A DNA stretch of 64,000 nt, from positions 34,418 to 98,417 of the forward strand of contig CAJUAK010000002.1 of the NCBI GenBank assembly GCA_910584385.1. Direction: 5' to 3'. The notes under the pieces are model-generated. The model was not told the origin of the DNA. It did no database searches and worked only from the letters and a program-made list of their open reading frames with translations. Positions within the stretch are counted from its first letter, which is position 1. Every line of letters starts with the position of its first letter. Positions 19,957 to 64,000 of the stretch are shown piece by piece. The stretch is from an uncultured Alphaproteobacteria bacterium (GTDB lineage: Bacteria > Pseudomonadota > Alphaproteobacteria > RF32 > CAG-239). Made by a program: the position numbers and the translations under genes.

Positions 19957-19965
19957 CAGGCATTG

Positions 19966-20003
19966 CTAAAAACAATCCCCGCAAAATGCGGGGATTGTTT
20001 TTG
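19966..20003. terminator. Bidirectional terminator (acaatccccgcaaaatgcggggattgt).
   Basis: Perfect inverted repeat flanked by A and T runs, between convergent genes. Confidence 0.55.
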
Positions 20004-20029
20004 CAGCCTGTGCAATTGGAGCATGTTTA

Positions 20030-20827: not shown

Positions 20828-20919
20828 CTTTATATAGTCCTGATAATCGTTTACAAGTTGAAAACAAGGTATTATTTTTTAAAAACATAGTCAACCCTAA
20901 AAGAAGGAAAACAAACGCC

Positions 20920-21465
20920 ATGTTAATGAATGCCGCCAATTCTTTGCTGCTGATTATTGATGTTCAGGAAAAGCTCGCCCCGACGATGAGCGCTTCCCGG
21001 GAAGTCATCTCCGGATGCGCGCGCTTAATCGGTGCTGCCGGAAGTTTGGGCGTGCCTTGTTTGTTTACGGAACAGTATCCCAAAGGTTTGGGACCGACAA
21101 TGGTTGATTTGCGCCAGGCGGCAGAGAAAAATGCAAAATATCTGCCGAAAACGGAATTTTCATGCGCAAAGAATGAAGCCATTTTGCAGGAAATTAAAAA
21201 CAGCGGGAGAAAACAAATCATTATGGCCGGTGTGGAATTGCACATCTGCGTTTTGCAAACGGCATTGGATTTGAAAGCTGCCGGCTATGATGTTTTTGTT
21301 GTGGCCAATGCCTGTTCATCCCAGGATGCGGCGCAGCATGTTCTGAGCTATCAGCGTTTGCTGGCCGCCGGCGTGGAAGTCGTTTCCTTGGAGATGGTTA
21401 TTTACGAATGGCTTGAAAAATCCGGCACGGATGTTTTCAAGGAAGTTGTAAAAAAGTATCTTTAG
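20920..21465 (+). CDS. Isochorismatase-family cysteine hydrolase.
   Basis: LLIIDVQEKLAP and the catalytic-region pattern VANACSS. Confidence 0.65.
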   Translation: MLMNAANSLLLIIDVQEKLAPTMSASREVISGCARLIGAAGSLGVPCLFTEQYPKGLGPTMVDLRQAAEKNAKYLPKTEFSCAKNEAILQEIKNSGRKQIIMAGVELHICVLQTALDLKAAGYDVFVVANACSSQDAAQHVLSYQRLLAAGVEVVSLEMVIYEWLEKSGTDVFKEVVKKYL

Positions 21466-21830
21466 GCTTTGGCGCGACCGTAAATGTCTTCATAACGGAT
21501 GATGTCATTTTCATCTAGGTTTTCGCCGTATTGGACTTCTATGAATTCCAGATTGGCGTTTTTATCGTTGCGGATGCGGTGTTTGGTCTGAACGGGGATA
21601 AACACGTTTTCTCCGGATTTTTTTATAATTTCTTTATCGCCAAGCGTAACGACGGCTTCGCCCTCTACCATAATCCAATGTTCGCTGCGGTGGTTATGCG
21701 ACTGGAGCGAGAGGCAGCTGCCCGGGGTAACAATGATTTTTTTTACGCAGAAATTGTTTCCGCCGTCTAAAACTTCCCAAGTTCCCCATGGACGGGTGTC
21801 GTGATCGCCTTTTTTATATGTATTTGCCAT
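21462..21830 (-). CDS. Cupin domain protein (mannose-6-phosphate isomerase type II C-terminal-like).
   Basis: Cupin motifs LSLQSHNHRSEHWIMVEG...IPVQTKHRIRN. Confidence 0.6.
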   Translation of the reverse strand: MANTYKKGDHDTRPWGTWEVLDGGNNFCVKKIIVTPGSCLSLQSHNHRSEHWIMVEGEAVVTLGDKEIIKKSGENVFIPVQTKHRIRNDKNANLEFIEVQYGENLDENDIIRYEDIYGRAKA

Positions 21831-47987: not shown

Positions 47988-48037
47988 GCAAGGTAAAATT
48001 ACTATTGTGGATTTTATTTCATAAATCTGTAACAGAG

Positions 48038-48073
48038 CTAAAAAAAGAACCCTGCTGAGTGTTTCAGCAGGGC
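48038..48073 (-). terminator. Minus-strand terminator (ccctgctga...tcagcaggg with an A-run on the plus strand).
   Basis: Hairpin plus A7, downstream of the 48097..48279 minus-strand gene. Confidence 0.5.
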
Positions 48074-48096
48074 TTTGGAGATGTATATGAAGCTTA

Positions 48097-48279
48097 CTAG
48101 AAAATTACTTTCTGCATATTGCTCCGCATGAGAGCGTCTTTTCTGCGTAAATTTTCTTTTTTTATTTGTTCAATGCGGATTAAATTTTTCCATACATGGC
48201 TTTCATTTTCTTTGATTGCCAAATCCAGACAGCTGTCTTGCAGCTTGAGGCTTTCCAGGCTGTTATCAAGATATTTCAT
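48097..48279 (-). CDS. DUF465 (YdcH-like) small coiled-coil protein.
   Basis: 60 aa with the LK..KL.LKD-like C-terminal pattern (IKKENLRRKDALMRS). Confidence 0.45.
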   Translation of the reverse strand: MKYLDNSLESLKLQDSCLDLAIKENESHVWKNLIRIEQIKKENLRRKDALMRSNMQKVIF

Positions 48280-48427
48280 GATTGTTCTCCCAAGATGGAA
48301 TTATTGCTAATTTGTAGCAATATCAATTATAGCATTTTTTTATTTAAAATCCAGCAAAAAGAATCTGTTAAATAGTTTTAGTTCTGAAAATGATGCTTAT
48401 ATTAAAAATAAAAATGAGGAGAAGAGT

Positions 48428-48817
48428 ATGCCGAATATGGATTGGTATCATGGTTTGTTAAAGCCGGATTTAACGCCGCCGGATTTTTTGTTTGGCGTTG
48501 TCTGGCCTGTTTTATATTTTTTGATGGGGTTGAGTTTGGTATTGCTTTGGAAAAACTCCGGCAAAAAGCTGTCTTGGCCTTTATTTTGGTTTGCGCTCCA
48601 GCTGGTTTTGAATTTGGCGTGGAGCCCGGTGTTTTTCGGTATGCGGAATATTGGCGGCGGCTTAGCGGTTATTTTGCTTTTATTTTTTGCACTTTCAATA
48701 ACAGTCGCGCTTTTCTACCGGCGCTATAAAATATCCGGATGGTTATTAATTCCTTATTGGTTTTGGGTCTTGTTTGCCGTCTATCTTAACTTTGGCATTT
48801 GGCTGCTTAATTCATAA
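48428..48817 (+). CDS. tspO: TspO/MBR family tryptophan-rich membrane protein. It is short and appears to lack the first transmembrane helix.
   Basis: LKPDLTPPDFLFGVVWPVLYFLMG and a C-terminal AVYLNFGIWLLN. RBS gaggag before the ATG. Confidence 0.6.
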   Translation: MPNMDWYHGLLKPDLTPPDFLFGVVWPVLYFLMGLSLVLLWKNSGKKLSWPLFWFALQLVLNLAWSPVFFGMRNIGGGLAVILLLFFALSITVALFYRRYKISGWLLIPYWFWVLFAVYLNFGIWLLNS

Positions 48818-48914
48818 TTATGAGATTCTCTGTGGCATAATTTAAATTTTTTGTTGTTTTTTATATTTTAAAGGCTAAAAACAGAATAGTGCGTAATTTA
48901 GTTGGAGATATAAA

Positions 48915-49286
48915 ATGGAAAAATTTAAAGCTAGCTTAAAAACTTATTTTTTAGATGTTTTGGTTAACCAGTATGTTGATTTTAAAGGCCGGGCATCCCG
49001 TACACAATTTTGGATGTTTTTCCTTTATGTTTTTGTAATTATGTTTGTCATCGGTTTTATTGCCGGATTGCTGAATATGCCCCGTTTGGCTCAGTTGGCA
49101 ATTTTGCCGTTCTTGCTGCCAAATATTGCTATTGCTGTCCGCCGCATCAGAGATTTGGGAATTTCCGGATGGTTTATCCTGGTATCTTTTGTTCCTTTTG
49201 TCGGTAGCATTTTGGTTTTGATCGGCTATTGCCTGCCGACAGATTTCCTCAAACCTTATGTTGAGAAATTGATGAAGAAAAACTAA
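48915..49286 (+). CDS. DUF805 (YhaH-like) inner membrane protein.
   Basis: GRASRTQFWMF and a conserved RRIRDLGISGW region. Confidence 0.75.
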   Translation: MEKFKASLKTYFLDVLVNQYVDFKGRASRTQFWMFFLYVFVIMFVIGFIAGLLNMPRLAQLAILPFLLPNIAIAVRRIRDLGISGWFILVSFVPFVGSILVLIGYCLPTDFLKPYVEKLMKKN

Positions 49287-49304
49287 TATTCTTTTTTGAA
49301 TATG

Positions 49305-49341
49305 GGGCGGTTGTCCGAGAGCACGGACAGCCGCTTTTTTT
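49305..49341 (+). terminator. Rho-independent terminator (gcggttgtccg...cggacagccgc followed by T7).
   Basis: Hairpin with a T-run after the DUF805 gene. Confidence 0.55.
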
Positions 49342-49459
49342 ATATATAGTCTAGCTTCGTAATTTTCGCTTTGTTAAGCTCAACAACTTCGCTTCGGTCA
49401 AAGACCTTGTAAGCTCGCTGCGGTTGCTGCCGCTTTCCTTGCTTGCAACAAGGTCTATT

Positions 49460-49505
49460 CACCATAATAAAAAAAGACCCGTTGGGGTCTGTTTTTATTA
49501 TGGTG
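49460..49505. repeat. 46-bp perfect palindrome (caccataataaaaaaagaccc gttg gggtctttttttattatggtg type). It works as a bidirectional terminator and may mark an island boundary.
   Basis: The arms were read directly. Base composition drops sharply to the right of this point. Confidence 0.55.
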
Positions 49506-49692
49506 CTCCGAAGTTGACGAATTGTTGAACTCCGTCAGGGATGAAACCATTGATATAAACGGATGGAAATAATGAAAATTTAACGGAGGGCAGACAATGA
49601 CATAACACAATGAAGATGCCTGATATAGAGGCTTTAAACGATTATAACACAAAAATAATTAAAGAAATAACGAAATTTTACGGAGAAAAATA

Positions 49693-49902
49693 ATGAAAAA
49701 CCAAAATACTAAAGTCTTAAATGAAAGAGGAGAAAAAAAGATGTCTAATAAAACTCGGGATTGGTTAACTTGTTGGATTGAAACTGAAACAAATAAGGTT
49801 GATGGTTCAGCCAAAGAGAAAAAGAAAGAAAATATCTCTAAAACAGAAAATTTTATAAGAGATTGGATTGCAAGCGAGACAACTCCATCAGTTTCCAATT
49901 AA
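49693..49902 (+). CDS. Small hypothetical protein with an internal duplication.
   Basis: TRDWLTCWIETETN and IRDWIASETT repeat within 69 aa. Lies in an AT-rich region. Confidence 0.3.
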   Translation: MKNQNTKVLNERGEKKMSNKTRDWLTCWIETETNKVDGSAKEKKKENISKTENFIRDWIASETTPSVSN

Positions 49903-49993
49903 ATTATTTTGAATAATATACTTTAATAAGTGCGATTTTTGCACAAATTAAGCAAGGAATCGCACTTGTTTTGTTATTTTAGTTTTTCTTAAC

Positions 49994-50113
49994 TTTACCG
50001 AGAGGGAAATTTTTTGTTGACATTTTATCATTTAATGGTGTATATTTACCGATAGGGAAATTTTTTATTCAAAAGGTTTTCTTTATAGTTAAAATTTACC
50101 GATGAGGAAATTT
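49994..50113 (+). promoter_or_regulatory. Three direct repeats TTTACCGA-N2-GGGAAATTT spaced about 50 bp apart. Putative operator/promoter of the hipBA-like module.
   Basis: Repeats at 49994, 50045 and 50095. The third overlaps the RBS and start of the HTH gene. Confidence 0.5.
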
Positions 50114-50320
50114 ATGAAAACAAAAGATTTGGCAGATATAATAAGAAAGAAACGCAAAGAGCAAAAACTTACCCAACCACAGTTGGCTGGGTTATGCAAT
50201 GTCGGTGTGCGGTTTATTGTTGATTTGGAATCGGGCAAAGAAACCTGTCAAATTGGCAAAGTGCTATATGTTCTGGATATGCTGGGAATTAAATTAAAAA
50301 TTGACGGAGAAAATCAATGA
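50114..50320 (+). CDS. hipB: Xre-family HTH protein (HipB-like antitoxin).
   Basis: HTH LTQPQLAGLCNVGVRFIVDLESG. Gene overlaps the hipA-like start. Confidence 0.55.
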   Translation: MKTKDLADIIRKKRKEQKLTQPQLAGLCNVGVRFIVDLESGKETCQIGKVLYVLDMLGIKLKIDGENQ

Positions 50321-51519
50321 ATTTGCTTGATGTCTATTTTCATAACAAAAAAATTGGAGTTTTAAAAGAGCATAATTCCAGATTGAGCTTCAAATATTCG
50401 GATGATGCTACAGAAGCGATTGCTCATCAGCTTCCGTTGCAAAAAGAAGCTTTTGGCGATAAAGAAACACGAAGTTTCTTTTCTAATTTATTGCCAGAAG
50501 GTGATGTGGTGAAGAAAATCGCTCAGATAAAACAAGTTTCGCTCAACAATCCATTTGCATTATTAAGAGAATTAGGCGGAGAATGTGCAGGGGCGGTTTC
50601 CCTTTATCCGCAAGATATGACACCGATTTTTGATGATACTTTGGAAGAAGTGTCTGCAGAAGAGTTGGCTACCCTTCTGAACAAGCTTTCTCAAACTCCG
50701 TTATTAACGGGCGCAGGTATTCGCTTATCGCTTGCTGGAGCACAAGAAAAACTAGCTTTAACAATTTTTCCTGATGATGAAAAGTATTATAAACCATCGG
50801 ATAAGTATATTTCTACTTGGATTTTAAAGCCTGAGAATCGGAATTTTCCAGATTTAATCTATAATGAATATTTTTGTATGAAGTTAGCAGGTCTTATGGG
50901 ATTAAATGTTGCTGAATGTAAGATTAGGATGTTTGGTTCAGTAACGGCTTATATGACAAAGCGATTTGACAGGCAGAATACTGTTCAGCGAATCCAGCAG
51001 GAAGATTTTTGCCAAGGTCTGGGGCTATCTAATAAAAAATATCAAAGAACTGAGGGAGGACCAAGCCTTAAGCAATGTTTTCAGTTCATCCATAGTAATC
51101 TGGCGAACAAGGCGAAAGATGAATTGCATTTTCTGAAAAGCATTGTTTTTAACTTTTTAATTGGTAATTCTGATGCTCACGGAAAGAATTTCTCTTATTT
51201 GCATACCGCGAACGGGTATGTTCTTTCTCCTTTGTATGATTTGGTATCTACCCAAGTTTATCCGCAACTAGCCAAAGAAATGTCAATGTCTATCGGTGGC
51301 GAGTATGAACCTGACAGAATTACCAGAACCAATTTTATGGTAATGGCAAAAGAACTTGGTGTGAAATCTCAACTTATTAATGACATTTTGGATAAATTGG
51401 CTGCAGAAATCATTGTGCAGGCAGAAAAACTCAAGGAAATGACGACAACTGAAAAAACTTATAATCCTGTTTATGATAAGGTTATAGAGGTTATTAAAGC
51501 AAGGGTTGCTCAGTTATAA
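50317..51519 (+). CDS. hipA: HipA-family serine/threonine kinase toxin.
   Basis: HipA N-terminal domain plus the catalytic loop GNSDAHGKNFS. Length 400 aa. Confidence 0.7.
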   Translation: MNLLDVYFHNKKIGVLKEHNSRLSFKYSDDATEAIAHQLPLQKEAFGDKETRSFFSNLLPEGDVVKKIAQIKQVSLNNPFALLRELGGECAGAVSLYPQDMTPIFDDTLEEVSAEELATLLNKLSQTPLLTGAGIRLSLAGAQEKLALTIFPDDEKYYKPSDKYISTWILKPENRNFPDLIYNEYFCMKLAGLMGLNVAECKIRMFGSVTAYMTKRFDRQNTVQRIQQEDFCQGLGLSNKKYQRTEGGPSLKQCFQFIHSNLANKAKDELHFLKSIVFNFLIGNSDAHGKNFSYLHTANGYVLSPLYDLVSTQVYPQLAKEMSMSIGGEYEPDRITRTNFMVMAKELGVKSQLINDILDKLAAEIIVQAEKLKEMTTTEKTYNPVYDKVIEVIKARVAQL

Positions 51520-51552
51520 TTCAGTTTTTTATGTAGGGTTGGTAAATTTCTA

Positions 51553-51588
51553 TTTTAGAAAATGCCCAATATTGGGCATTTTCTAAAA
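51553..51588. terminator. 36-bp perfect palindrome (ttttagaaaatgcccaatattgggcattttctaaaa). Likely a bidirectional terminator.
   Basis: Read directly, downstream of hipA. Confidence 0.5.
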
Positions 51589-51836
51589 TGAAATATTCAT
51601 TTTTAACTATTGAGGATTGCCGAATATGTCGTTTCTTTTGCGGAGAAAAACTAGTCTAATCTCCGCATATTTTGCGTAGATTAATGCTTGATATTGTAAT
51701 ACGAATGCTTGTTAATATAGCATAATTAAGAGATTAAATGCAATTCTGTGTAAAATTTTAGCAAAGAACCGCATTTAATTTTCATTTTAGTAGATTTAAG
51801 GGTGGTTTTCCTTGTTAAAATTTTAGTTTTTATGCC

Positions 51837-52589
51837 TCATCTCATAGGGTAAAAAGCTGTAAGTCTGCTGTATTTTTGTGTGATATCTTGTATGTCTGTT
51901 TTGTTTAATTGGTATAGATTTACATACATAAAAGTAATATACAAGCATTGTAGACTTATTGATATTGCAAGAAATTTATCACAATTTGGTATATTCATAC
52001 TTGTTCCATATCTGGGCATCATTACATACGGCGCATAATGCTTATATGCACAGAATCTGTCGTAGCTTTGTTTAATATTGGTTATTTCAGGATGATTACC
52101 ATTATTTGTAAGCCGTTGTACAATATCATTAATATCTTTTGCTTCTGGTCGGTACCATTTATTATAGTAATTTTTAGGGTTTAATAGAACTTCATCAGTT
52201 AATTCCTGTCCCTGTATATTTTTTTTCAATAATCTTTTTAAATTGTTTTTCTTTATAAAATTCAGATTATCATCTTTTTCTTCTGGATGGAGGTGTAGTC
52301 CTTCTAAAAATTCTATTGTTCCAAAATCTGCATATTGGCGAACTCTTTCTTTTGGTTTATCTAACATCCAAGAGAGTAAAATAAGCCCCTCCAACATATG
52401 AGAAGCTAAAATACAAGCATTATAATAATCATTATAAAGGTGCAATACAGATTTCGCGGATGATACCATTTTTTTGTAAAAAGAAACTGTTGCGTGCTGT
52501 ATAGGACTATTCAGCTCAAAATTAATATGTTGAGTACGTTCTATCAGCGAATACAAAATTTTTTTATATTTCTTTACGTTATCATCCAT
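51837..52589 (-). CDS. Hypothetical protein co-transcribed downstream of hsdR. Possible defence accessory gene.
   Basis: Lies 10 bp after the hsdR stop on the same strand. No known domain. Contains an Rx6H segment (RLTNNGNH). Confidence 0.35.
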   Translation of the reverse strand: MDDNVKKYKKILYSLIERTQHINFELNSPIQHATVSFYKKMVSSAKSVLHLYNDYYNACILASHMLEGLILLSWMLDKPKERVRQYADFGTIEFLEGLHLHPEEKDDNLNFIKKNNLKRLLKKNIQGQELTDEVLLNPKNYYNKWYRPEAKDINDIVQRLTNNGNHPEITNIKQSYDRFCAYKHYAPYVMMPRYGTSMNIPNCDKFLAISISLQCLYITFMYVNLYQLNKTDIQDITQKYSRLTAFYPMR

Positions 52590-52598
52590 ATCTATAGT

Positions 52599-55500
52599 TT
52601 ACACCCCGCCAGAGGAAATATCGCGGAAACGATTGAAGAATGCAATAATCTTTTGAATTACGGTTTCTCTCTTTTTTTGCCGTCTTTTTTGTGGGTCTAT
52701 GATTGGGAGTGGAGGTAAAACCTTATTAATTTGTATTCCGTTTTCCTGAACATAACCATTTTTGAAGGCATTATTGACATATTTGTAGGTTTCTTCCTTG
52801 TTTAAATTTTCTTCTTCAATAATTTTATTCAGCTCTGTTATTTTCTGTTCATTAACATATTTTTTCCAATCCTCATCAACATTACTGGTGGGTGTGAGCG
52901 AGTCAATAAAGTTTTCAATGAGGTCTTTTTTGCTGCGTAACTCAATACTGGCATCAACAGATTTCAAAATACTAACTTTAATTTCTTTATCTTCCATATG
53001 ACCTGCGTGATATTTTTTAATCAGCATTAGGATATAATCAATATTAATTTCAACCTGTTTAATCAGTTCAATCTCAAAAACAAGGTCATCATTAACATTG
53101 TCTTTTTCTTTGCCTTGGGGGCGCAGTTCATCATAAATCCTTAAATATTGGCTATGATAATCTTGTACATTCCGTTCGGTTAAAATTTCTTTTCCTGCAA
53201 ATTCATCAAATGAAGATAAAATATTTTTCAATCGCAGGATTGCACCATAGAGTTTAACAAAATCCCGCTTTTCTTTTTCACTGAAAATTAGCTCTCCAGC
53301 GGGATATGTTTCTACCAACTCCTCAATCAGTTCTTTGTAACCTTTAACAGTTTTGCCTTTATCATCGGTATAACCATTATAATATTCGGCAAAAGTTTTG
53401 AGCAATACGATACCACCCGCTTCTTTATCGCCAAACAAAGCAAGGCTCTTATTGGTTGCCTCTTCCAAATTGCGGAAACACACAATATTACCAAAGGCTT
53501 TAACAGCATTCAAAATACGGTTGGTGCGGGAAAATGCCTGCAACAGTCCTTGCATTCTTAAATTTTTATCCACCCACAGGGTATTTAAGGTCGTGGCATC
53601 AAAACCTGTTAAGAACATATTGACCACAATCAGCAGGTCAATTTCTCGGTTTTTCATTCGCATAGATACATCTTTGTAATAATTTTGGAATTTGTCGCTT
53701 GATGTATCGTAAGATGTCCCAAACATTTTATTATAGTCGTCAATGGCACTTTCCAGAAAATCTCTGTCGCTTTTATCCAATTTGCTGGTATCTTCTGGAT
53801 TTTCATCAAATACGCCGTCATCAGAATTATCATCACCATTCATTCCAAAACTAAAAATGGTTGCAACTTTGAGCTTCTGTAAAGGTTTTTCAGCCATTTG
53901 CTTTCTAAATTCTTCATAATAGAGTTTGGCAAACGGAATGGAAGAAACGGCAAAAATGGAATTAAAACCTGTCAGCCGAACTTTTTGTTTTATTTCATCA
54001 ATATCTTTGCGGTTTTTCGCTTGGGCAATATCTGCAATGTTGGTCAAAATATTATAGCTGTAAGACCTGTCGTTTCGCATTGTTTTCTGGTTAAAATGTT
54101 CCAAGATATAAGAAACGATACGAGATATTCTTTCAGGAGCAGCTAGGGCTTTTTCGCGGTTAATATCCCAAACTTTGGAATCTTTAATATTTTCCTGTTC
54201 TTTCATCGTACTGATGTAATCAATACGAAACGGCAAAACATTTTTATCGGCAATTGCATCAACAATTGTATAAGTATGTAATTGCTCACCAAATAACTGG
54301 GCTGTTGTTTTAAGGTCGGATTTGCAACCTGTATGAGCATTTTCGGCAAATATCGGCGTGCCTGTAAAGCCGAACAGATGATATTTTTTAAAGGCTTTGG
54401 TGATAGTCTGGTGCATCTCACCGAATTGGCTTCGGTGGCATTCGTCAAAAATTATCACAAGATGCTGGTTATAGACGGGATGTTCTTTATTTTGTTTGAT
54501 GAAGCAGGTTAATTTCTGAATTGTGGTAATAATGATGCGGGCATTAGGATTTTCAAGCTGTTTTTTCAAAACTGCCGTGCTGGTGTTGCTGTTGGCAGCT
54601 CCTTTTTGAAACTTGTCATATTCTTTCATTGTTTGGTAATCAAGGTCTTTCCTGTCTACCACAAACAAAACCTTGTCTATAATCGCCATATTCTGGGCAA
54701 GCTGTGCCGTTTTGAACGAGGACAGCGTTTTTCCCGAGCCTGTGGTGTGCCAAATATAGCCACCGCCATCTACTGTGCCATATTGTTTATAATTGCTTGC
54801 AATATTGATTTTATTGATAATGCTTTCGGTTGCCACAATCTGATAAGGACGCATTACCATCAGCATTTCATCAGATGTAAAAACGCAATATCTGGTCAAA
54901 ATATTTAGAAGTGTGTGTTTGGCAAAAAAGGTTTTGGCAAAATCAATTAAATCAATAATCGGTTTGTTTTTTCTATCAGCCCACCAAGAGGTAAATTCAA
55001 AACTGTTGCTGGTCTTTTTGCCCTTTTTTGAAGATGTTCCAGCATTTTCGCTGATATGCGATTGACGGGTGGTGTTACTGTAATACTTGGTATATGTGCC
55101 GTTTGAGATAACAAATATCTGCACAAATTCATATAAACCGCTTCCTGCCCAGAAACTATCGTTTTGATAACGGTTGATTTGGTTAAACGCATCTTTAATA
55201 TCAACACCGCGGCGTTTTAATTCTATATGTACCAAAGGCAAGCCATTAACCAAAACGGTGGCATCATAACGATTAGCTCTTGCTCCATCGTCCGTTTCAT
55301 ACTGATTGATAACCTGCAAAGTGTTGTTGTGGATGTTATCCTTATCTATCAGCAGGATATTGCGAAAAAGATAATTATCAACGGGCTTTTCATAATAAAG
55401 AACTTTTTTATAATCTTCTTGGATTATCTTGGTCTTTTCTTTAATACCGAAATTAGGATTGGCAATTTCCTGTTTGAAAAAAGTATCCCACTCTTTGTCT

Positions 55501-55727
55501 GTGAAGTGGTAATCGTTTAATTTTTCCAGTTGGCAGCGTAAGTTATCAATCAGGTCTTTTTCTGAATGAATTGGCAAATAATCGTATGCTTGATTTTGCA
55601 ATTGTTTAATGAACGCTTTTTCAAGGTCCGCCTCGGATTGATATTCGGTTTGCTTGGTTTCTACCGCCTGATATTCGGCAACAACTGTGCTTTCAGGATT
55701 TTCGGCAACGACACTAATTTTGTTCAT
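52599..55727 (-). CDS. hsdR: Type I restriction enzyme R subunit.
   Basis: 1042 aa with the PD-(D/E)xK region, helicase motifs (TGSGKT, DECHRSQ) and a Type I HsdR C-terminal helical domain. Confidence 0.9.
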   Translation of the reverse strand: MNKISVVAENPESTVVAEYQAVETKQTEYQSEADLEKAFIKQLQNQAYDYLPIHSEKDLIDNLRCQLEKLNDYHFTDKEWDTFFKQEIANPNFGIKEKTKIIQEDYKKVLYYEKPVDNYLFRNILLIDKDNIHNNTLQVINQYETDDGARANRYDATVLVNGLPLVHIELKRRGVDIKDAFNQINRYQNDSFWAGSGLYEFVQIFVISNGTYTKYYSNTTRQSHISENAGTSSKKGKKTSNSFEFTSWWADRKNKPIIDLIDFAKTFFAKHTLLNILTRYCVFTSDEMLMVMRPYQIVATESIINKINIASNYKQYGTVDGGGYIWHTTGSGKTLSSFKTAQLAQNMAIIDKVLFVVDRKDLDYQTMKEYDKFQKGAANSNTSTAVLKKQLENPNARIIITTIQKLTCFIKQNKEHPVYNQHLVIIFDECHRSQFGEMHQTITKAFKKYHLFGFTGTPIFAENAHTGCKSDLKTTAQLFGEQLHTYTIVDAIADKNVLPFRIDYISTMKEQENIKDSKVWDINREKALAAPERISRIVSYILEHFNQKTMRNDRSYSYNILTNIADIAQAKNRKDIDEIKQKVRLTGFNSIFAVSSIPFAKLYYEEFRKQMAEKPLQKLKVATIFSFGMNGDDNSDDGVFDENPEDTSKLDKSDRDFLESAIDDYNKMFGTSYDTSSDKFQNYYKDVSMRMKNREIDLLIVVNMFLTGFDATTLNTLWVDKNLRMQGLLQAFSRTNRILNAVKAFGNIVCFRNLEEATNKSLALFGDKEAGGIVLLKTFAEYYNGYTDDKGKTVKGYKELIEELVETYPAGELIFSEKEKRDFVKLYGAILRLKNILSSFDEFAGKEILTERNVQDYHSQYLRIYDELRPQGKEKDNVNDDLVFEIELIKQVEINIDYILMLIKKYHAGHMEDKEIKVSILKSVDASIELRSKKDLIENFIDSLTPTSNVDEDWKKYVNEQKITELNKIIEEENLNKEETYKYVNNAFKNGYVQENGIQINKVLPPLPIIDPQKRRQKKRETVIQKIIAFFNRFRDISSGGV

Positions 55728-56886
55728 TATTATTCTCCTTTTCTGCTTGTAATTCTAAGTAGCAAGCAGTGATAGTCAATAATTTTATTTCATCATATGA
55801 CATTGTTTCTACATCAATATCTACCCATTTTTTAGCGAATTGTTTAGAAAAACTTTGAGCACGCTGTAATCCCCAAATTTTATCTGTATTTATATTTTCA
55901 TTTAAATATGAAAATATTTTTTCTCTATCATAACCAAACGTTTGATAAGTGTTTTTGGGGTAAGCGTATATTATCTCATCTACTATATTTGCTAATTTAT
56001 CATAATCTAAATTGTCAACACTATCACAAATTTGAGGTATCGATGAAATTATAATATTTCTTATTCGTTGTACAGAATTCTTATTCTTACTATTTTCTGA
56101 TTCATATTTTAAAAACTTTATAAAGCACTCTATCTCATAAGTATCACAAAATCTTTCATTAAGAGTATCATAAACTTCTTGCAATATCTGTATGTCTGAT
56201 TGGTTTCTGTTTATTTTCTTTCTTTTCCATTCTTCTTTTTTGTTTTCTATTCTTCTTTCTAACTCATTTTTGACTAATATAAGCTGTTCATATCTGTTTT
56301 TTATAAAAGATTTCAATGAATCATAAGGGACGTACAGTGTTTTTGTTGCAGACTGTTGGTTAGAATAAACAAGGATGCCAATGCAATCTTTTTTTAAATT
56401 ATTAAAATCAGATAAAAGAAATGGCGAATAATGTATTTCGTTTTTTTCTTTTAGAAAGGGAGCTCGGCTAGTATTAAGAGGATGGGCAAATATGAGAGCT
56501 CTTAAATATTCAAAAAATTTAATATCAGTTGGACAGTTATCACCTATTAAATATAATGGCGCGTCTGCACAAACATTCATAAAATGCTTTTTTATTTCTT
56601 TTTGTTCGTCTTTAATTTTAAGTTGTTCCATTGTTTCTTGTACTGCATCTTTTATAATACAAGAATGGAGCATAAAAAGCATAATATCGTTCATATTTTG
56701 AGAAGATGTATTGTATTGGTTTAAAAATTCAACACTATCGTCTACTCTATCCATTACCGCACAGATAAGATTGTAATTGCGCTTCTCTTGTTCATCGCGA
56801 TGGAATATTCTTGATGAATTAACAACTTTCCTTAATTCTTTACAAATATTTCCATCTAAAAAATCCATATTAGGCAGCCTCTTCAA
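55714..56886 (-). CDS. Uncharacterised protein embedded between hsdS and hsdR. Possible HEPN-type abortive-infection protein.
   Basis: Overlaps both neighbouring genes. No NTPase motif. Rx5H motif at EYLRALIFAHP. Confidence 0.35.
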   Translation of the reverse strand: MKRLPNMDFLDGNICKELRKVVNSSRIFHRDEQEKRNYNLICAVMDRVDDSVEFLNQYNTSSQNMNDIMLFMLHSCIIKDAVQETMEQLKIKDEQKEIKKHFMNVCADAPLYLIGDNCPTDIKFFEYLRALIFAHPLNTSRAPFLKEKNEIHYSPFLLSDFNNLKKDCIGILVYSNQQSATKTLYVPYDSLKSFIKNRYEQLILVKNELERRIENKKEEWKRKKINRNQSDIQILQEVYDTLNERFCDTYEIECFIKFLKYESENSKNKNSVQRIRNIIISSIPQICDSVDNLDYDKLANIVDEIIYAYPKNTYQTFGYDREKIFSYLNENINTDKIWGLQRAQSFSKQFAKKWVDIDVETMSYDEIKLLTITACYLELQAEKENNNEQN

Positions 56887-57496
56887 AAGTCAGTAGTTTA
56901 TTTCTGTAATATTCATATTGTTGCCTGCGAGCAGTGAGTTCGGCAGGCAAGCCTTCTGAAATATCATTAACAAGGCTATCAAACTTATCTAAAATTGCAA
57001 CAATTCTTTCCTGTTCTTCTATTGGAGGAAAACCGAATTTAAATTTACTCATTGCAATATCATTTATTCTCATTACCTTTACACCAGTTATACATTTTTT
57101 CTTTTGTTCAAAGAATGCATTTGTTTGAAATAGGTATGACATATATTTAGGATTTTGATTATGATGATAGATAAAAGCATCACCACTAATGCAAATATCC
57201 TCATTGCCTAACCAAGCAACCGCTTTGCCAACATCCTCAACATTTTCACTAGTGGTTGCAATAATTAAATCTCCTGTTCGTGCTTTTTTTAACTTTTCAG
57301 CTAAGTTGTTGGAAACGTAAGATTTTGTTCGTTCTGCAAAAGTACCATAATAGGTATAGATTTGTCCATAATGAATACACCCAACACCTGTATCCGTAAA
57401 ATCCTTCTTTTGCAAACCATTACCTCTGATAAATGTTCCAACCTCTTCAAGTTGCATAAATTTAATTCTGCCCCCCCCCCGTTGTATTTTTATCAA
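56870..57496 (-). CDS. hsdS: Type I restriction specificity subunit, C-terminal half (TRD2 plus distal conserved region). It is out of frame with the N-terminal half at the G10 tract.
   Basis: Ends ARRQQYEYYRNKLLTFEEAA, a duplicate of the central conserved motif. The frame is offset by +1 relative to the upstream half. Confidence 0.8.
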   Translation of the reverse strand: MIKIQRGGGRIKFMQLEEVGTFIRGNGLQKKDFTDTGVGCIHYGQIYTYYGTFAERTKSYVSNNLAEKLKKARTGDLIIATTSENVEDVGKAVAWLGNEDICISGDAFIYHHNQNPKYMSYLFQTNAFFEQKKKCITGVKVMRINDIAMSKFKFGFPPIEEQERIVAILDKFDSLVNDISEGLPAELTARRQQYEYYRNKLLTFEEAA

Positions 57497-58130
57497 AAGT
57501 TAGGAGTTTGTTACGGTAGTATTCATATTGCTTCTTTCTCGCCTCCAGCTCCGCCTCCAGCTCCGCCTCCAGCTCCGCCTCCAGCGAGCTAAAAGCATCC
57601 AGAATCCGCACAACCTCTTCCTGCACAGGAAGAGGAGGGACAGGAATTTTTAGTGATAAAACTGCTTTCATAGAAGGATGTTGGATACCAGCGCCCCGAT
57701 AAAAAGAACTAATAAGTTCAATATTATTTGACATCCAATAATATAAAAACTTATTGCTCAAAACATTTGTATCATTTGATGTAGCAATCCTGTTATCACC
57801 AGTAATAAACTTTCCTTTGTAATATTTGACATTTGGTGTTCCCCCCCAAGGAATTGCTACAATTTCACCATTGCATAAATTATTCCCCGCCAATTCTTCT
57901 GTTGTGTATTTTATTTCACCAATTCCAGTTGATAAAATCCTGACATCTCCATTTTTTACAACAAGAGCGTTTACATCATTTGCCAACAGGTATGGATATT
58001 TAATAACTTTTTTTTGTTTTTCTTTTTCCACACCATTAAACTTCTTATCCCAAGATGTCAGTTCCCATAATTCCTTAAATTGAACCCCATTCGGGCAATA
58101 TTGCTTTATCAAATCATCAATCTTACTCAT
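57462..58130 (-). CDS. hsdS: Type I restriction specificity subunit, N-terminal half (TRD1 plus central conserved region with LEAE repeats). It terminates 2 codons after the G10 tract.
   Basis: Contains VPPLPVQEEVVRILDAF...LEAELEAELEAELEARKKQYEYYRNKLLTF and ends ...TTGGGQN*. Confidence 0.8.
   Translation of the reverse strand: MSKIDDLIKQYCPNGVQFKELWELTSWDKKFNGVEKEKQKKVIKYPYLLANDVNALVVKNGDVRILSTGIGEIKYTTEELAGNNLCNGEIVAIPWGGTPNVKYYKGKFITGDNRIATSNDTNVLSNKFLYYWMSNNIELISSFYRGAGIQHPSMKAVLSLKIPVPPLPVQEEVVRILDAFSSLEAELEAELEAELEARKKQYEYYRNKLLTFDKNTTGGGQN
57471..57480 (-). repeat. Homopolymeric C10 tract (G10 on the coding strand) at the hsdS half-gene junction.
   Basis: Counted directly. Removing one G would fuse the two halves in frame. 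Confidence 0.9.
57541..57588 (-). repeat. 12-bp tandem repeat (gcctccagctcc, about 3.8 copies) encoding (LEAE)n in the hsdS central spacer region.
   Basis: Three perfect copies plus one partial copy read directly. Confidence 0.9.
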
Positions 58131-58141
58131 CTTGTACTTCC

Positions 58142-58915
58142 TTATAACTTCAAAACTTTTCTAAGTTCTTTTAATCTGTCTGCGGTTTGAATATTCTCAA
58201 CTATTGAACTTATTAATTCTTTTAATGGTAAATATTCATTTAATGCTGTTTTATCATCAAATTCTCCGTGGACGATATTACTTAATTCTTGGAACAATTC
58301 GTACTTTCTATCATCTAATCCGTGAGGAATAATGTGTGCTTTTTTATTAGCTTCTTTTAGTTTTTCTTTAAAATTTAAAGTACTATCTATGTTATGCTTT
58401 TTTACAATTTCACTTACAATTGTTTCATATATCTTTCGCAAATATATAATTGCTCCCGCACCTAATCCCTCTCTATAGGCCTTATCTGCGGCGTCAAACA
58501 GTTCAATATATTTTGAAGTTGGTTTATAACTAACACTTTCAGATAGTTTATCTGAATATTTAATAATTCTAACTTTGGGAATTTGGGAGTGAATTTCATT
58601 TTCGCTTTCAATTAAAAACCAAGCAGGAATAGATGTTTCGCAAAATAAACAAGTTAAGACACAATCTATACTTATCATTTTTTCGTTTATTCCAATGCAA
58701 TGAACGGAACAAGGTTTAACAGGGTTATATAAGCAAAACGATTGCATCTTATTGCACTTTTTGCAAAAGAAATCTATTTGTATGTTACCAACCTCAATTT
58801 TTTTTAATTTTCCTCTATTGAGAAATTTTCCATCTAAAAAACCGTCTACAGGCTGAAAATCTGCTGATGGTTTAGTTGATAATATGTCGCTTAATCTCAT
58901 ATTATCACTCTCCAA
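58142..58915 (-). CDS. Zinc-ribbon plus DUF4145/HEPN-like domain protein embedded in the Type I operon.
   Basis: N-terminal Cys cluster (CKKCNK...CSVHC...CLFC). C-terminal AGAIIYLRKIYE...LSNIVHGEFD resembles DUF4145 (HEPN). Confidence 0.4.
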   Translation of the reverse strand: MESDNMRLSDILSTKPSADFQPVDGFLDGKFLNRGKLKKIEVGNIQIDFFCKKCNKMQSFCLYNPVKPCSVHCIGINEKMISIDCVLTCLFCETSIPAWFLIESENEIHSQIPKVRIIKYSDKLSESVSYKPTSKYIELFDAADKAYREGLGAGAIIYLRKIYETIVSEIVKKHNIDSTLNFKEKLKEANKKAHIIPHGLDDRKYELFQELSNIVHGEFDDKTALNEYLPLKELISSIVENIQTADRLKELRKVLKL

Positions 58916-58933
58916 ATGTGATGTTTTTGTATT

Positions 58934-60001
58934 TTATTCATCATTTTTGCCCTCAACAGAATCTTTTGATTTTTTGTTGTTTATCATATTTTCCAACTCT
59001 AAAAAGTAGTCAAAATCGCTATGATAAAGCCTATCTTGAATGATGCGATATTTTTCAAACTCTGTTTCAGCGTGTTGTTTAGCAAGTTCTGCTGATATTT
59101 TTCCAGCTCCCTGCAAAATATCCCTTCGTGTTAATCTTAATAAACCATCCAGTTGAGATGCCCAATCTTCCATTGTCATCGGCATATTTCTTTCTGCTTG
59201 GGATTCTGCCAAATCAAGATATGCGTTGACAATACGTCCCATTGCTCTCAGTTCTTCTTCGGTTAAATAATTCTTCGCAACACTGACATCATATTTATGA
59301 ATTTTACTTTGAGGTGCTCCTTCCCAAGTTGTCAGTCCCATATGCTCTTTGTTGGCATCAGCACGATTATAAATAACCTCTGCAGCGGTTTGTCCGTGAA
59401 TAGCCCAATGCAGTTTATTTTGCACCTTTGCAAAAAACTCTTGCGTCGTTTTAGATTTAGCATCGTAATCAACGCTCGTGGCATAAATATCCGTTATTTT
59501 TTGATAGAACATCCGTTCAGACATACGAATTTCTCTAATCCGCTGCAGTTGTTCTTCAAAATATTTTTTTGTCAGTATTGAGCCGCCTCGTTTAATGCGC
59601 TCATCATCCATTGCATAAGCTTTTATGGTGTATTGCTCAATAATATCATTAGCCCATTTACGAAATTGCACGGCTTTGGGAGAATCGACTTTATTACCAA
59701 CGGCAATAATTGCTTTTAAATTATAATGGTTGGTTTCGTATGTTTTTCCATCAGTGGCAGTTATTCGAAATTTTCGAATAACTGAATTTTCATCTAACTC
59801 CATATCACTAAAAATTTTTTTCAGATGATAATTAATAGTATTTGTTTCTACATTATACAAAATACCCATCATCTTTTGCGTAAGCCAAACGTTTTCATCA
59901 GCATAAATTGCCTCAATACCACTTTCTCCCGTAGCGGTAATAAATGTGAGATATTCAGCCGCGGAGCTTCTGATAGTAATTTCCTTTTTTTTAGCCATCA
60001 C
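58934..60001 (-). CDS. rhuM: RhuM-family protein.
   Basis: Conserved [11 protein letters not shown] and [13 protein letters not shown] blocks. Typical position between hsdM and hsdS. Confidence 0.7.
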
Positions 60002-61557
60002 GCCACTCCTTCCAAATCGGCAACGATGGCATCTATTTGCTGTCGTAACTCATTTTGTTTAGCCACAATTTGTTTGATTTGCTCATTTAAGACGGTAATA
60101 TCAATTTTTTCACGGATGTCTTTCTGCTCAACATAGGAAGAAACCGAGATATTGTAATCGTTCTCGCCAATTTTATCGTTTTTAACTAATTTACAGAAAT
60201 GTTCTTTATCTTCCCGTTTAATGTAGGCTTGCAAGATGTTTGCAATATTCTCATCAGTCAGTTTATTCTTATTGCCAGAATGGATAAATTCATTGCTTGC
60301 ATCAATAAACAAAACGGCATTGTCTTTTTTGCTCTTCTTCAAAACAATGATGCAGGTTGCAATACTCACGCCAAAGAATAAGTTGGCGGGAAGCTGAATC
60401 ACACAATCAACAAAGTTGTTGTCAATCAGATACTTACGAATTTTCTGCTCTGCCCCGCCGCGATATAAAACCCCAGGAAATTCTACGATTGCTGCCGTTC
60501 CGTCGGCCGCCAGCCAATTAAGCATATGCATCGTAAAAGCAAGGTCTGCTTTGCTTCGCGGTGCTAAAACACCAGCAGGAGAATAACGAGGGTCGTTGAT
60601 TAGGGTAACATCACTGTCCCCAGCCCAAGAGATAGAATAGGGCGGATTGGATACAATCGCCTCAAACGGCTCATCATTCCAATGTTTTGGGTCGGTTAAA
60701 GTATCTCCCAATGCAATATCAAATTTTTCATAATTGATATTGTGCAAAAACATATTAATACGGCAGAGATTGTAGGTTGTAATATTAATTTCCTGTCCGT
60801 AAAATCCATCTTTTACGTTTTCCTGCCCCAGAATTTTGGCAAATTTCAGCAGCAACGAACCCGAACCGCAGGCGGGGTCATAAACTTTATTGACTGATGT
60901 TTTGCCAACTAATGTAATTTTTGCCAAGAGTTCTGAAACTTCTTGCGGCGTAAAAAACTCACCACCTGATTTTCCTGCACTGCTGGCGTACATTGTCATT
61001 AAATATTCGTAAGCATCACCAAAAGCATCTATGGTATTGTCGGTAAAATTGCCAAGTTTTAACTCCTTGATAGAGGCTAAAATCTTAACCAGTTTCTCAT
61101 TTCTTTTTTGAACTGTTGCTCCCAGTTTATTGCTGTTAACATCAATATCTGCAAATAAGCCCTTGAAATCATCTTCACTGGCTGTTCCCTGTGCGGAGGC
61201 TTCAATATCACGGAATGCTTTGCTCAATGTTTCGTTTAAATTGGGATTGTTCTTGGCTTTTTTTTGCACATTTTGAAACAATTCACTAGGTAGAATAAAA
61301 AAACCTTTGGTAGAAACGGCGTACTCTCGGGCTGTTTCGGCGTTTTCATCAGTTTCTTTGGTATAATCATAGTCAGCAATACCGCTTTCCCTCTGTAATT
61401 TATTGATATATGCGGTGATATTTTCAGAGATAAAGCGATAGAACAGAATCCCCAGCACATAGGATTTGAAATCCCAACCATCAACGCTGCCTCGCAAATC
61501 ATTGGCAATTTGCCAGATAATTCTGTGTAATTCCGCTCTTTCTTGCTCTTTAGTCAT
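59998..61557 (-). CDS. hsdM: Type I restriction-modification DNA methyltransferase subunit (N6-adenine).
   Basis: HsdM N-terminal domain, AdoMet motif I ([12 protein letters not shown]) and motif IV (NPPYS). Confidence 0.9.
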
Positions 61558-61679
61558 TTCTTATCTTCCCAATAGTCAATAATTTTATGCAATTATAAAG
61601 AGGAAGGGTTAATTTTAAGTTTAGAGGCTCTTTCAAGCAAAGAAACCATAAAAATTTATCAGAAGTAAAACTAAAGTAT

Positions 61680-61785
61680 ACCCTATTTTTACATTTACAA
61701 AAGTGTAAAATCTAAATCATTTTGCTTGACAATTTTACAGATGTAAAATATATTCTTAAATATAGATTTTACATATTTAGGATTG
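61680..61785 (+). promoter_or_regulatory. Putative res-like site and promoter of the recombinase gene. It has three TGTAAAAT/ATTTTACA subsites. A sigma70-like TTGACA-17-TATATT promoter sits with subsite II in its spacer.
   Basis: Subsites at 61686-61710, 61732-61749 (near-perfect palindrome) and 61766-61776. The -35 is at 61726-61731 and the -10 at 61749-61754. Confidence 0.5.
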
Positions 61786-61786
61786 G

Positions 61787-62350
61787 ATGATGATTTTTAA
61801 TTATATACGAGTTTCTACGATTGAGCAAAATACTGAACGGCAGTTAAGGGATGTTGTTTGCGACAGGGTATATGAAGAAAAAATTAGTGGTAAGGATACC
61901 AACCGTCCCCAATTACAGGCAATGCTGTCCAATATCCGTTTTGGGGACATCATTAATATTCACGAAATGAGTCGTCTGGCTCGTAATACTCGTGATTTAT
62001 TAAATCTGGTAGAGGAAATTACCTCAAAAGGAGCAACAGTTGTTTTTCATAAGGAAAACTTAACTTTCAAAGGTAATGAAAAACAAGACCCATATCAAAA
62101 AATGATGATGACTATGCTTGGAGCTGTGGCAGAGTTGGAACGCAATTTAATATTGGAACGCCAACGAGAGGGAATTGCTCTTGCTAAACTGCACAACAAG
62201 TATAAAGGCGGTCAGCCTAAGCTAACTGCCGAACAGGTTACAGAATTAACCACACTTTACAAGCAAGGAATGCCTATCGCACGCATTGCCAAGCAATTTA
62301 AAATAACTCGTCCAACGGTTTATTCTTACTTAAAAAATGAAGAGAAATGA
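61787..62350 (+). CDS. Small serine recombinase (resolvase/invertase family) with a C-terminal HTH.
   Basis: Catalytic YIRVSTIEQ (Ser10), the conserved ERQREGI block and a C-terminal HTH IARIAKQFKITRPTVY. Confidence 0.8.
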   Translation: MMIFNYIRVSTIEQNTERQLRDVVCDRVYEEKISGKDTNRPQLQAMLSNIRFGDIINIHEMSRLARNTRDLLNLVEEITSKGATVVFHKENLTFKGNEKQDPYQKMMMTMLGAVAELERNLILERQREGIALAKLHNKYKGGQPKLTAEQVTELTTLYKQGMPIARIAKQFKITRPTVYSYLKNEEK

Positions 62351-62371
62351 AAGGCGATATTGAACATTCCA

Positions 62372-63052
62372 TCAATTTGGTGAAGGAGCATTTAGATTCG
62401 TATTCAAAATAACAGATTCAACAATTTTTCTGGCTAATTCTGTTACATTCCAACCTGCACTGTTAAAGTTATAGGTGGATTTTATGCCTTTGGGGGCATC
62501 TAAAAAAGTGATAAGAGCATACTCCTGCCCCTGATAGATAAAATGTCCCAAAAATGTTGTAACAATATCATCAGGATTATCTAACTTGTAGTCTGTTGCC
62601 GTTAGGCCATAGATAGAAATACCTTCAATGTTTATTTTCTTTGCTGCCCCGTTGGTAACATTGCCTCTTAACTCTTCCAGTTCTTTTTTACCTGCTGATT
62701 TGATGAAAGAGGTATAATCTTGGATAAACTGTGATGTGGTTGCCAATCTATCCTTTTTCAAAAGTTTCATAATGTTGTTGGGCGTATATGAAAAATCTTT
62801 ATTGTAGTCAAAACTTTCTAAAATACTGATGGAGGCGGAATTTAGAACTTCATCGTTTTCCAAATTCACCAGAATAAAAGCACCTCCTGCGGTATTAAAT
62901 TTTTCAACTTCCTCTGCCAATACACTATAATTTCTTTTGCAAATAGCTTCTTCTGTATTGCAGGTTTCGGAGAAAGATTTATTGTTGGAGATGTTTTTAT
63001 ACGAACATCCCATCAAAATTAAAGAAAACATTAAAAAAACTATTTTTTTCAT
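62372..63052 (-). CDS. Lipoprotein of unknown function.
   Basis: MKKIVFLMFSLILMGC lipobox. Confidence 0.45.
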   Translation of the reverse strand: MKKIVFLMFSLILMGCSYKNISNNKSFSETCNTEEAICKRNYSVLAEEVEKFNTAGGAFILVNLENDEVLNSASISILESFDYNKDFSYTPNNIMKLLKKDRLATTSQFIQDYTSFIKSAGKKELEELRGNVTNGAAKKINIEGISIYGLTATDYKLDNPDDIVTTFLGHFIYQGQEYALITFLDAPKGIKSTYNFNSAGWNVTELARKIVESVILNTNLNAPSPN

Positions 63053-63053
63053 A

Positions 63054-63977
63054 TTACTTCTCCTTTTTTGTTAAAACATTCTGCAATGTTTGATGAACAA
63101 CCTGACACCAATGAGTGTAAATGTAAGGAAGAGTATTACGAGTTTCCTCGCCTAACAACTCTTTTTTTACCTCATCATAAAATTCTTTACGAACGATAAG
63201 TTTGTTTCCAAAGCCCATTCCGATGCGTCGCCATTTTTCAAAAAATTCTTCATCAAGCCCTCCAGTCCACGGATAAATTTTTGTTATCGGAGAAAAAATA
63301 GTTTGGACTTCATCTACAATTTCATTATTCAAAAGTTCAATGAAATATTGTTTAATTTCATTATCTTCAACAACAAAAAAACGGGCTGTTTTTGCAAATC
63401 CCATTCCTCCTGGAACCGTAGCCGCAACAAACATTATATCATTTGGATTAATCTGTTTGAGAGTCTGCAAATTCAGTTTTTGAAACAAAAATCCGTGCTC
63501 ATCTATTTGTTCTGGATAACTTTCTTCAAAAGAAAATTCACGAGGGTCTTCCACCATTTTTCTTGCTGTAAAAGACAATTCTCGTTTGCACCCACATAAA
63601 TACAAATCAATATTGGGAAAATCATTTCTTAAATTTATATCTATATGACAACCCAACCATTCATCAGAATAAAAAAGAGATTGTCCGAAATTAATTTTCA
63701 TCGGATATGTTTTAAATAGATTTATCTCAACAGTTAAGTCAAATTCATGATTTAAGAAATCGCTATTATACACTTTCAAATATTTTGAAACAAAATATTC
63801 TTTTGAAACAAGCGGCTTCTCCCCGTTATCATCAACCACAGAAGTTTCTTCATCGTTTATCCTAATCGTTCCGCTATCTATATGAAATTGAATATAGTCG
63901 TCTATATAATAATAATCTTTACGAACAGATTCGGCTTTGTCAAAATTTATTCCAAATCTTATTCCAAGTAGGCTCAA
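63054..63977 (-). CDS. Hypothetical protein.
   Basis: 307-aa ORF immediately upstream of, and co-oriented with, the lipoprotein gene. No recognised domain. Confidence 0.35.
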   Translation of the reverse strand: MSLLGIRFGINFDKAESVRKDYYYIDDYIQFHIDSGTIRINDEETSVVDDNGEKPLVSKEYFVSKYLKVYNSDFLNHEFDLTVEINLFKTYPMKINFGQSLFYSDEWLGCHIDINLRNDFPNIDLYLCGCKRELSFTARKMVEDPREFSFEESYPEQIDEHGFLFQKLNLQTLKQINPNDIMFVAATVPGGMGFAKTARFFVVEDNEIKQYFIELLNNEIVDEVQTIFSPITKIYPWTGGLDEEFFEKWRRIGMGFGNKLIVRKEFYDEVKKELLGEETRNTLPYIYTHWCQVVHQTLQNVLTKKEK

Positions 63978-64000
63978 GCGAATACTATTAAGACTAAAAT

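Follow-up and report, generated by a model that had tools for sequence, protein, structure and literature searches.

A poly-G tract in the type IC hsdS gene of an uncultured gut alphaproteobacterium: a probable switch between fused and split specificity subunits

In the NgoAV restriction-modification system of Neisseria gonorrhoeae FA1090, the specificity gene is split into hsdS1 and hsdS2 by a poly-G tract located at the end of hsdS1 (Adamczyk-Poplawska et al. 2011, as described in PMC9577141). The truncated HsdS protein, of 208 aa, recognises GCAN8TGC; when the tract loses one G both genes are fused and the recognised site becomes GCAN7STCA. Among gonococcal strains, the length of this poly-G tract ranges from 6 to 9 (PMC9577141). 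In this work we describe a comparable arrangement in a stretch of 64,000 nucleotides of contig CAJUAK010000002.1 (the window), which comes from an uncultured gut alphaproteobacterium and contains an intact type IC operon whose hsdS gene is divided into two open reading frames (ORFs) at a run of ten G. We consider it likely that this run is a contingency tract at which slippage toggles HsdS between a fused and a split form, and that the half-subunit of the G10 state would specify a palindrome derived from the first target-recognition domain (TRD1).

Other described hsdS genes and HsdS proteins are relevant to this proposal. According to a survey of REBASE, 7.8% of hsdS genes contain simple sequence repeats (SSRs), which in every case lie between the TRDs (Atack et al. 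2020, PMC7383803). Among them are two genes of Salmonella enterica serovar India with G[12] tracts, a variable TRD1 and a shared TRD2 (PMC7383803). Different half-size type IC subunits have been reported to recognise palindromic sites. For instance, the homodimer of the N-terminal half-subunit EcoR124I(delta50) recognises GAAN7TTC, the N-terminal half-subunit EcoDXXI(deltaC) recognises TCAN8TGA, and the C-terminal half EcoDXXI(deltaN) recognises GAAYN5RTTC (PMC3874165). Co-expressed type IC halves regenerate the wild-type specificity, and the number of TAEL repeats in EcoR124I and EcoR124II shifts the gap of the recognised site from N6 to N7 (PMC3874165).

The slippage tract of the window, read directly from the sequence, is a C10 run on the plus strand (57471-57480), equivalent to G10 on the coding minus strand, where it encodes Gly-Gly-Gly in the linker that joins the central helix to TRD2. 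The minus-strand reading of 56700-58300 across the tract is ...AAAAATACAAC-GGGGGGGGGG-CAGAATTAAATTTATGCAAC.... The upstream ORF, or N-half (57462..58130, minus strand), codes for 222 aa that comprise the N-terminal conserved region, TRD1 and the complete central conserved helix D1 (Pfam Methylase_S, E = 2e-18). In the G10 state a stop codon is present two codons past the tract, and the N-half ends in ...TTGGGQN* (the tail can be written as ...YYRNKLLTFDKNTTGGGQN or ...LLTFDKNTTGGGQN). The downstream ORF, or C-half (56870..57457, minus strand), codes for 195 aa from an ATG at 57457 and contains TRD2 and the distal conserved helix D2 (Pfam Methylase_S, E = 6e-12); its frame is open further upstream, to a TTG at 57496 (208 aa). 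The initial annotation had already described two hsdS ORFs that overlap at this tract, the upstream one with this same terminus, and both the coordinates and the frames are confirmed here.

The length of the tract determines which proteins can be encoded. In silico, G9 joins both halves into a two-TRD HsdS of 419 aa that reads ...TTGGGRIKFMQLEEVG... across the junction, and G12 gives a product of 420 aa, while G8 or G11 give products of 275 or 276 aa with an out-of-frame tail. Thus, as indicated by this G8 to G12 series and by public contigs in which both the 419-aa gene and the 222 + 195-aa genes are called, a change in length switches the product between the full-length HsdS and a clean truncation. 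The G10 tract and a G7 run at 57841-57847 are the only runs of G or C of at least 6 nucleotides in the entire 64 kb, for which the base composition leads one to expect about 9 runs of at least 6 and 0.02 runs of at least 10. GGG is the rarest glycine codon (11%) of the genomic island in which the operon lies. As a mononucleotide run of at least 9 within an ORF, the tract is an SSR in the sense of Atack et al., and it is situated between the two TRD coding regions, with a Methylase_S domain on either side and within a linker insertion that follows LLTF. The split of hsdS at G10 is real and not a chance feature.

A G9 counterpart is found on the same background. The exact HsdM sequence of the window led to a 118-kb ENA metagenome contig (L007), whose positions 7558-21560 correspond to positions 64000-49997 of the window (14,003 bases) with 0 mismatches and one 1-nt gap. 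This gap falls at the tract, where L007 has G9 and the window G10, and constitutes the sole difference over 14 kb. The hsdS of L007 is a single 419-aa gene, identical to the product repaired in silico; its C-half sequence is identical to that of the split window allele, and by comparison with this G9 allele both half-ORFs of the window are free of secondary mutations. The removal of one G had been predicted to join the frames into a full-length two-TRD HsdS of about 415 aa, and L007 encodes exactly such a full-length protein, although its actual size is 419 aa. When the repaired 419-aa product was compared with a protein database, the best match was only 77% identical. Neither hsdS half was found by exact cluster look-up, and the fused allele was reached through the neighbouring genes.

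Both states are also represented in a survey of the 24 longest contigs that carry, with a short flank, the 384-aa gene adjacent to hsdS. The fused 419-aa hsdS with G9 is present at 15 of the 24 places, the split hsdS (222 + 195 aa) with G10, 100% identical to the window, at six (including the NCBI metagenome-assembled genome, MAG, GCA_948619485.1), and a 418-aa allele with a different TRD1 and G9 at three. The 222-aa product, which is specific to G10, was found in contigs of 33 index blocks, and the 195-aa C-half product in 50. The runs of one study show both states (G9 in ERR3199588 and G10 in ERR3199585); a paper search for the study behind ERR3199585, ERR3199588 and ERR3199592 found none. 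The proposal of a tract-length switch is therefore supported by the fact that both lengths are common in public assemblies and by the presence of G9 and G10 on an identical background of 14 kb.

The tract is not exclusive to this strain. Full-length relatives that have the same TRD2 and unrelated TRD1s show the junction ...LLTFDENTTGGG(R/K)IKFMQL..., that is, TTGGG(R/K)IKFMQL, and the DNA of the full-length relatives L001-L006 contains G9. Split alleles with G10 are also found on four other diverged backgrounds. One is L012, an alphaproteobacterial MAG from sheep rumen whose two TRDs are both different; the others are L024, L025 (97.6% identity to L001, a G9 locus) and L026 (91.7% identity to L007). 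The last three were reached via C-half products beginning with M(T)KIQRGGGRIKFMQL, in a homology search that listed mostly short products and that gives no ratio of split to fused alleles. A flank-anchored pattern had one match among species-representative genomes, the sheep-rumen MAG, and a metagenome scan yielded seven loci, mostly with interrupted tracts. The interrupted, in-frame tract GGAGGGGGG (TTEGGK) is carried by other relatives (L016-L020 and L022; for instance, positions 2877-2921 of L016). An interrupted tract should be much less prone to slippage, and these alleles look like versions locked in the fused state. Altogether, the 26 loci examined comprise eleven with G9, eight with G10, one that reads GGGTGGGGGG and six interrupted ones, and neither G8 nor G11 was present among them. 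Alleles with G8 or G11 were also sought via the C-half product, and all 24 contigs read carried G10. The tract is kept at the DNA level across alleles that differ in their TRDs; it belongs to the hsdS scaffold and recurs across lineages.

The position of the tract within the protein is also informative. In a phmmer comparison, the repaired HsdS matched the S subunit of EcoR124II (PDB 7bst_A) over query residues 113-416 (E = 1e-33). In the alignment to 7bst_A, KNTTG appears as a 5-residue insertion: it follows LLTF, where the central helix ends (...QYEYYRNKLLTF), and precedes the first TRD2 strand. Since the tract is located exactly at the boundary of the half-modules, the last residues of the N-half resemble the natural C-terminus of the full-length protein (...QYEYYRNKLLTFEEAA). 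The dimerisation helices D1 and D2 are nearly identical over AEL.AR..QYEYYRNKLLTF (BLASTP of the N-half against the C-half), a likeness that, by analogy with the half-subunits mentioned above, would permit homodimers. The system is assigned to the type IC family because hsdR carries an EcoR124_C domain. This HsdR is accompanied by a complete HsdM, and further type IC features are the homology of HsdS over the conserved regions and TRD2, a 12-bp (4-residue) repeat in D1, and the similarity between D1 and D2.

The ATG of the C-half is placed 4 nt after the TAA stop codon of the N-half. In relatives, GATGAAAAT provides the shifted frame with an ATG shortly before the tract. Because the C-half ORF is intact and only 4 nt away from the N-half stop, it may be translated too, which is plausible from the arrangement of both ORFs. 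The G10 state had been predicted to produce a half-size HsdS with TRD1 only. The N-half does carry TRD1, but this description may be incomplete if the intact C-half is also produced.

Taken together, the locus resembles NgoAV in several respects. Both are type IC systems in which a poly-G tract between the central conserved region and TRD2 splits hsdS, both have an N-half of about 210-220 aa, and in both the halves become fused when one G is lost (410 aa in NgoAV, 419 aa here); in addition, the tract length varies among strains and the central helix contains a 4-residue repeat. However, gonococcal tracts range over G6-G9, most of them being G7, and those of the present locus are G9 or G10. Here the C-half has kept an intact ORF, with the same sequence as in the fused allele, whereas NgoAV hsdS2 is reported to be without an active protein (PMC9577141). 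The host is an uncultured gut alphaproteobacterium and not a pathogen, and its operon carries a RhuM-family gene and two ORFs without family match. Moreover, the specificities of NgoAV have been measured, whereas the system described here is known from sequence alone.

With the SSR-containing hsdS genes of REBASE, the locus shares a G tract of at least 9 between the TRDs, alleles that have TRD2 in common and differ in TRD1, and a predicted switch between full-length and half-size HsdS. Whereas that survey covered REBASE genomes, all known sequences of this lineage come from metagenomes and MAGs, and the lineage adds G9/G10 pairs on identical backgrounds as well as interrupted alleles that are apparently locked in frame. 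The engineered half-subunits belong to the same HsdS family, are truncated past the central helix and have similar D1 and D2 helices, but they result from laboratory deletions or a Tn5 insertion, while the tract described here is natural. Helix D1 carries a 12-bp repeat, as in EcoR124I and EcoR124II, and the relatives have either 2 or 3 copies; however, it encodes LEAE instead of TAEL, and changes in copy number were seen only between alleles and lineages.

On these grounds, hsdS probably undergoes a real and reversible switch. Slipped-strand mispairing during replication, at whatever rate it takes place, would shift the tract between G9 and G10 and would be reversible within a clone. In the G9 state, a single HsdS of 419 aa with TRD1 and TRD2 would be made, and the M2S1 enzyme would recognise an asymmetric bipartite site. 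In the G10 state, the translation stop after the tract would release a clean half-subunit with TRD1 and a complete D1. By analogy with NgoAV, EcoR124I(delta50) and EcoDXXI(deltaC), this half-subunit would homodimerise via D1 and direct methylation and restriction to a palindrome built from the TRD1 half-site. If the C-half were also made, it could add a palindrome of TRD2 or rebuild the original specificity. Judging from these precedents, the G10 state most likely specifies the TRD1 palindrome, possibly together with other specificities, and such a change might have a regulatory (phasevarion) or a defence consequence. The idea put forward in the initial annotation that half-subunits dimerise and acquire palindromic specificities thus has experimental precedent in type IC systems (PMC3874165, PMC9577141) and agrees with the near identity of D1 and D2. 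Regarding the two outcomes that it had offered, an ON/OFF or a specificity switch, the latter is better supported by precedent and a plain ON/OFF switch less so.

A more elaborate version of this model can be formulated, which we regard as doubtful. According to it, the split state would give two functional half-subunits from one mRNA and, with them, as many as three specificities side by side (the TRD1 palindrome, the TRD2 palindrome and the original heterodimeric site); the number of LEAE repeats would act as a second axis that sets the gap length; and the tract would be the conserved hinge of a modular hsdS scaffold in many gut and rumen lineages, with the interrupted versions locked in frame.

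Several points weigh against a reversible change of specificity. The counted contigs come largely from few studies and may resample one strain, and two NCBI MAGs have contigs of the same size (157,933 bp); because of such repeated strains, the contig counts are not independent. Only G9 and G10 have been observed, never G8 or G11. Tract lengths come from assembled contigs and not from reads within one sample or clone, and the G9/G10 difference between assemblies could partly reflect homopolymer miscalls. The ATG of the C-half lacks a conventional Shine-Dalgarno sequence, the only similar element being the G run itself, 13 nt upstream. The activity of the half-subunits and the translation of the C-half are presumed, and the palindromic specificity of the G10 state is predicted by precedent rather than from the methylome of the host.

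The main rival of the specificity switch is a plain OFF state, in which the half-subunits of G10 would fail to assemble an active methyltransferase or nuclease and the tract would turn the whole system off and on, which could, for instance, permit DNA uptake or avoid self-restriction. The tract and the frameshift, which are real, also fit this explanation; more of the contigs read have G9 than G10, and 47% of the ngoAV loci in a gonococcal survey are predicted to be without an active enzyme (PMC9577141). However, the stop codon two codons past the tract leaves a complete TRD1 and D1 module, of a size that is active in three type IC systems (PMC3874165), D1 and D2 are nearly identical, and neither half-ORF has accumulated secondary mutations. 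Furthermore, G10 recurs in five backgrounds, whereas G8 and G11, the lengths that would append a junk tail, are not seen. We therefore consider a plain OFF state unlikely.

It is very unlikely that there is one true tract length and that G9 and G10 are artefacts of sequencing or assembly. Several platforms are prone to errors in runs of 9-10 G, the lengths were taken from assemblies, and some of the contigs are anomalous near the tract. In L015 (2151-2160), the tract of G10 length reads GGGTGGGGGG and the contig ends 120 nt past it, while the L024 and L025 contigs start 89 nt upstream of the tract; these ends may be assembly breaks or errors near the tract and the conserved central region, possibly caused by mixed alleles. 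Nevertheless, both lengths were recovered repeatedly by different studies and pipelines (ENA assemblies with differing styles of contig names, Logan assemblies, NCBI MAGs and the sheep-rumen MAG), and only the two clean-coding lengths appear. The conservation of the tract DNA across alleles with different TRDs, and the presence in some lineages of an interrupted version of synonymous length, also argue against miscalls. A fixed frameshift, that is, a one-off +1 mutation that left a decaying pseudogene or a stably split gene without reversible switching, fits the split gene of the window and its identical contigs but is the least credible explanation, since an otherwise identical 14-kb background carries G9, neither half of hsdS, nor hsdM or hsdR, has secondary lesions, and the same +1 state arises independently in other lineages.

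Other repeats in the region were considered with respect to the switch. Helix D1 contains a perfect 12-bp tandem repeat (57540..57585, minus strand; 3.8 copies of GAGCTGGAGGCG) that encodes LEAE and is not mentioned in the initial annotation. Relatives have two or three LEAE units; L018 and L020 have three, compared with two in the other relatives with interrupted tracts. For a change of this number within the strain there is no sign, as all the conspecific contigs examined have three full units. The G7 run within TRD1 (57841..57847, minus strand) encodes a PWGG motif that is conserved in the TRD1 family. This second run had been pointed out along with the G10 tract and it does exist, but it is G7 in all the conspecific contigs examined (L007, L008, L009, L013, L014 and L015) and was rejected as a second switch on account of this invariance.

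A recombinase shufflon of the SpnD39III type was also rejected, despite the presence of a resolvase gene, as no second copy of hsdS and no meaningful inverted repeats are present in the window. A tblastn search of the window gave no further hsdS sequence, no convincing inverted repeats bracket the TRDs in the window, and there is no evidence that the resolvase (61787..62350) acts on hsdS. A 25-nt inverted repeat, 92% complementary, is formed by 57699-57723, in the 3' part of TRD1, and 58202-58226, at the end of the ORF upstream of hsdS. It is probably coincidental, because both arms encode ELISS by means of a nearly self-complementary sequence.

On the minus strand, the genes of the operon are ordered as hsdM, the RhuM-family gene, an ORF at 58142-58915, the split hsdS, the 384-aa ORF and hsdR. 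The hsdM gene (59998..61557, minus strand) is intact and codes for 519 aa (TIGR00497, E = 2e-231; Pfam N6_Mtase and HsdM_N). The RhuM-family gene (58934..60001, minus strand), whose start overlaps the end of hsdM, is inserted between hsdM and hsdS and matches Pfam Virulence_RhuM (E = 1e-106) and the PADLOC candidate system PDC-S05 (E = 4e-146). Between it and hsdS, the ORF at 58142..58915 (minus strand) codes for 257 aa from a TTG, and is called as 252 aa in L007. The 384-aa ORF between hsdS and hsdR (55714..56868, minus strand) was found in 301 index blocks. Neither of these two ORFs has a match in Pfam, NCBIfam or PADLOC. The hsdR gene (52599..55727, minus strand) is also intact and codes for 1042 aa (Pfam EcoR124_C, E = 8e-67, HSDR_N, SWI2_SNF2 and T1R_D3-like; TIGR00348). 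Upstream of hsdM and divergent from it, there is a gene for a serine recombinase, or resolvase (61787..62350, plus strand; Pfam Resolvase and HTH_7), which is mentioned here as context only.

Related operons show further variation in gene content. In L001, the slot between hsdS and hsdR (7190-8281) is occupied by a gene for a 363-aa AAA_13 protein in place of the 384-aa ORF. In the type IC EcoprrI locus, the anticodon nuclease PrrC is encoded at this position, so the slot may be a site where accessory defence genes are swapped. L001 also has two RhuM genes in direct orientation (1309-2319 and 4874-5896) that flank the resolvase gene and hsdM. In L004, a RhuM gene (4883-5896) is immediately upstream of hsdS, with no resolvase gene or hsdM between them, an arrangement due either to a deletion between direct RhuM copies or to a collapse in the metagenome assembly.

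Between about 48 and 64 kb, the G+C content is 33-36%, compared with 43-46% elsewhere in the window. This low G+C content suggests that the type I operon sits in an acquired island. The island (48000-64000) also holds the resolvase gene, a HipA-like gene of 400 aa (50317-51519; HipA_C in the annotation of L007) and several ORFs without family match, and past the end of the window L007 continues with ankyrin-repeat, radical SAM and AAA genes. The remainder of the window consists of chromosomal genes such as lepA, ettA, ptsP, pyk, pntB and murC. The nearest named relatives of LepA (29638-31443, plus strand) are 88-90% identical and belong to MAGs labelled as Alphaproteobacteria or Rhodospirillales bacterium. 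Related contigs derive from human gut metagenomes. The chromosomal genes, the relatives of LepA and the gut source of the related contigs thus indicate that the host is an uncultured gut alphaproteobacterium. The exact LepA sequence is present on 72 contigs, and the species seems to be widespread in gut metagenomes and known only from MAGs.

Switching of hsdS by poly-G tracts of the NgoAV type was already known, and the novelty of this locus is modest: an uncultured commensal host, natural G9/G10 pairs on identical DNA, and an intact C-half. We recommend annotating the two hsdS ORFs as a single phase-variable gene, neither as a pseudogene nor as separate genes. G9/G10 pairs on identical backgrounds are already present in public metagenomes. 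If the switch works as proposed, a commensal gut alphaproteobacterium would alter both its methylome and its restriction barrier by the gain or loss of a single base, and a mechanism known mainly from pathogens would extend to the commensal microbiota.

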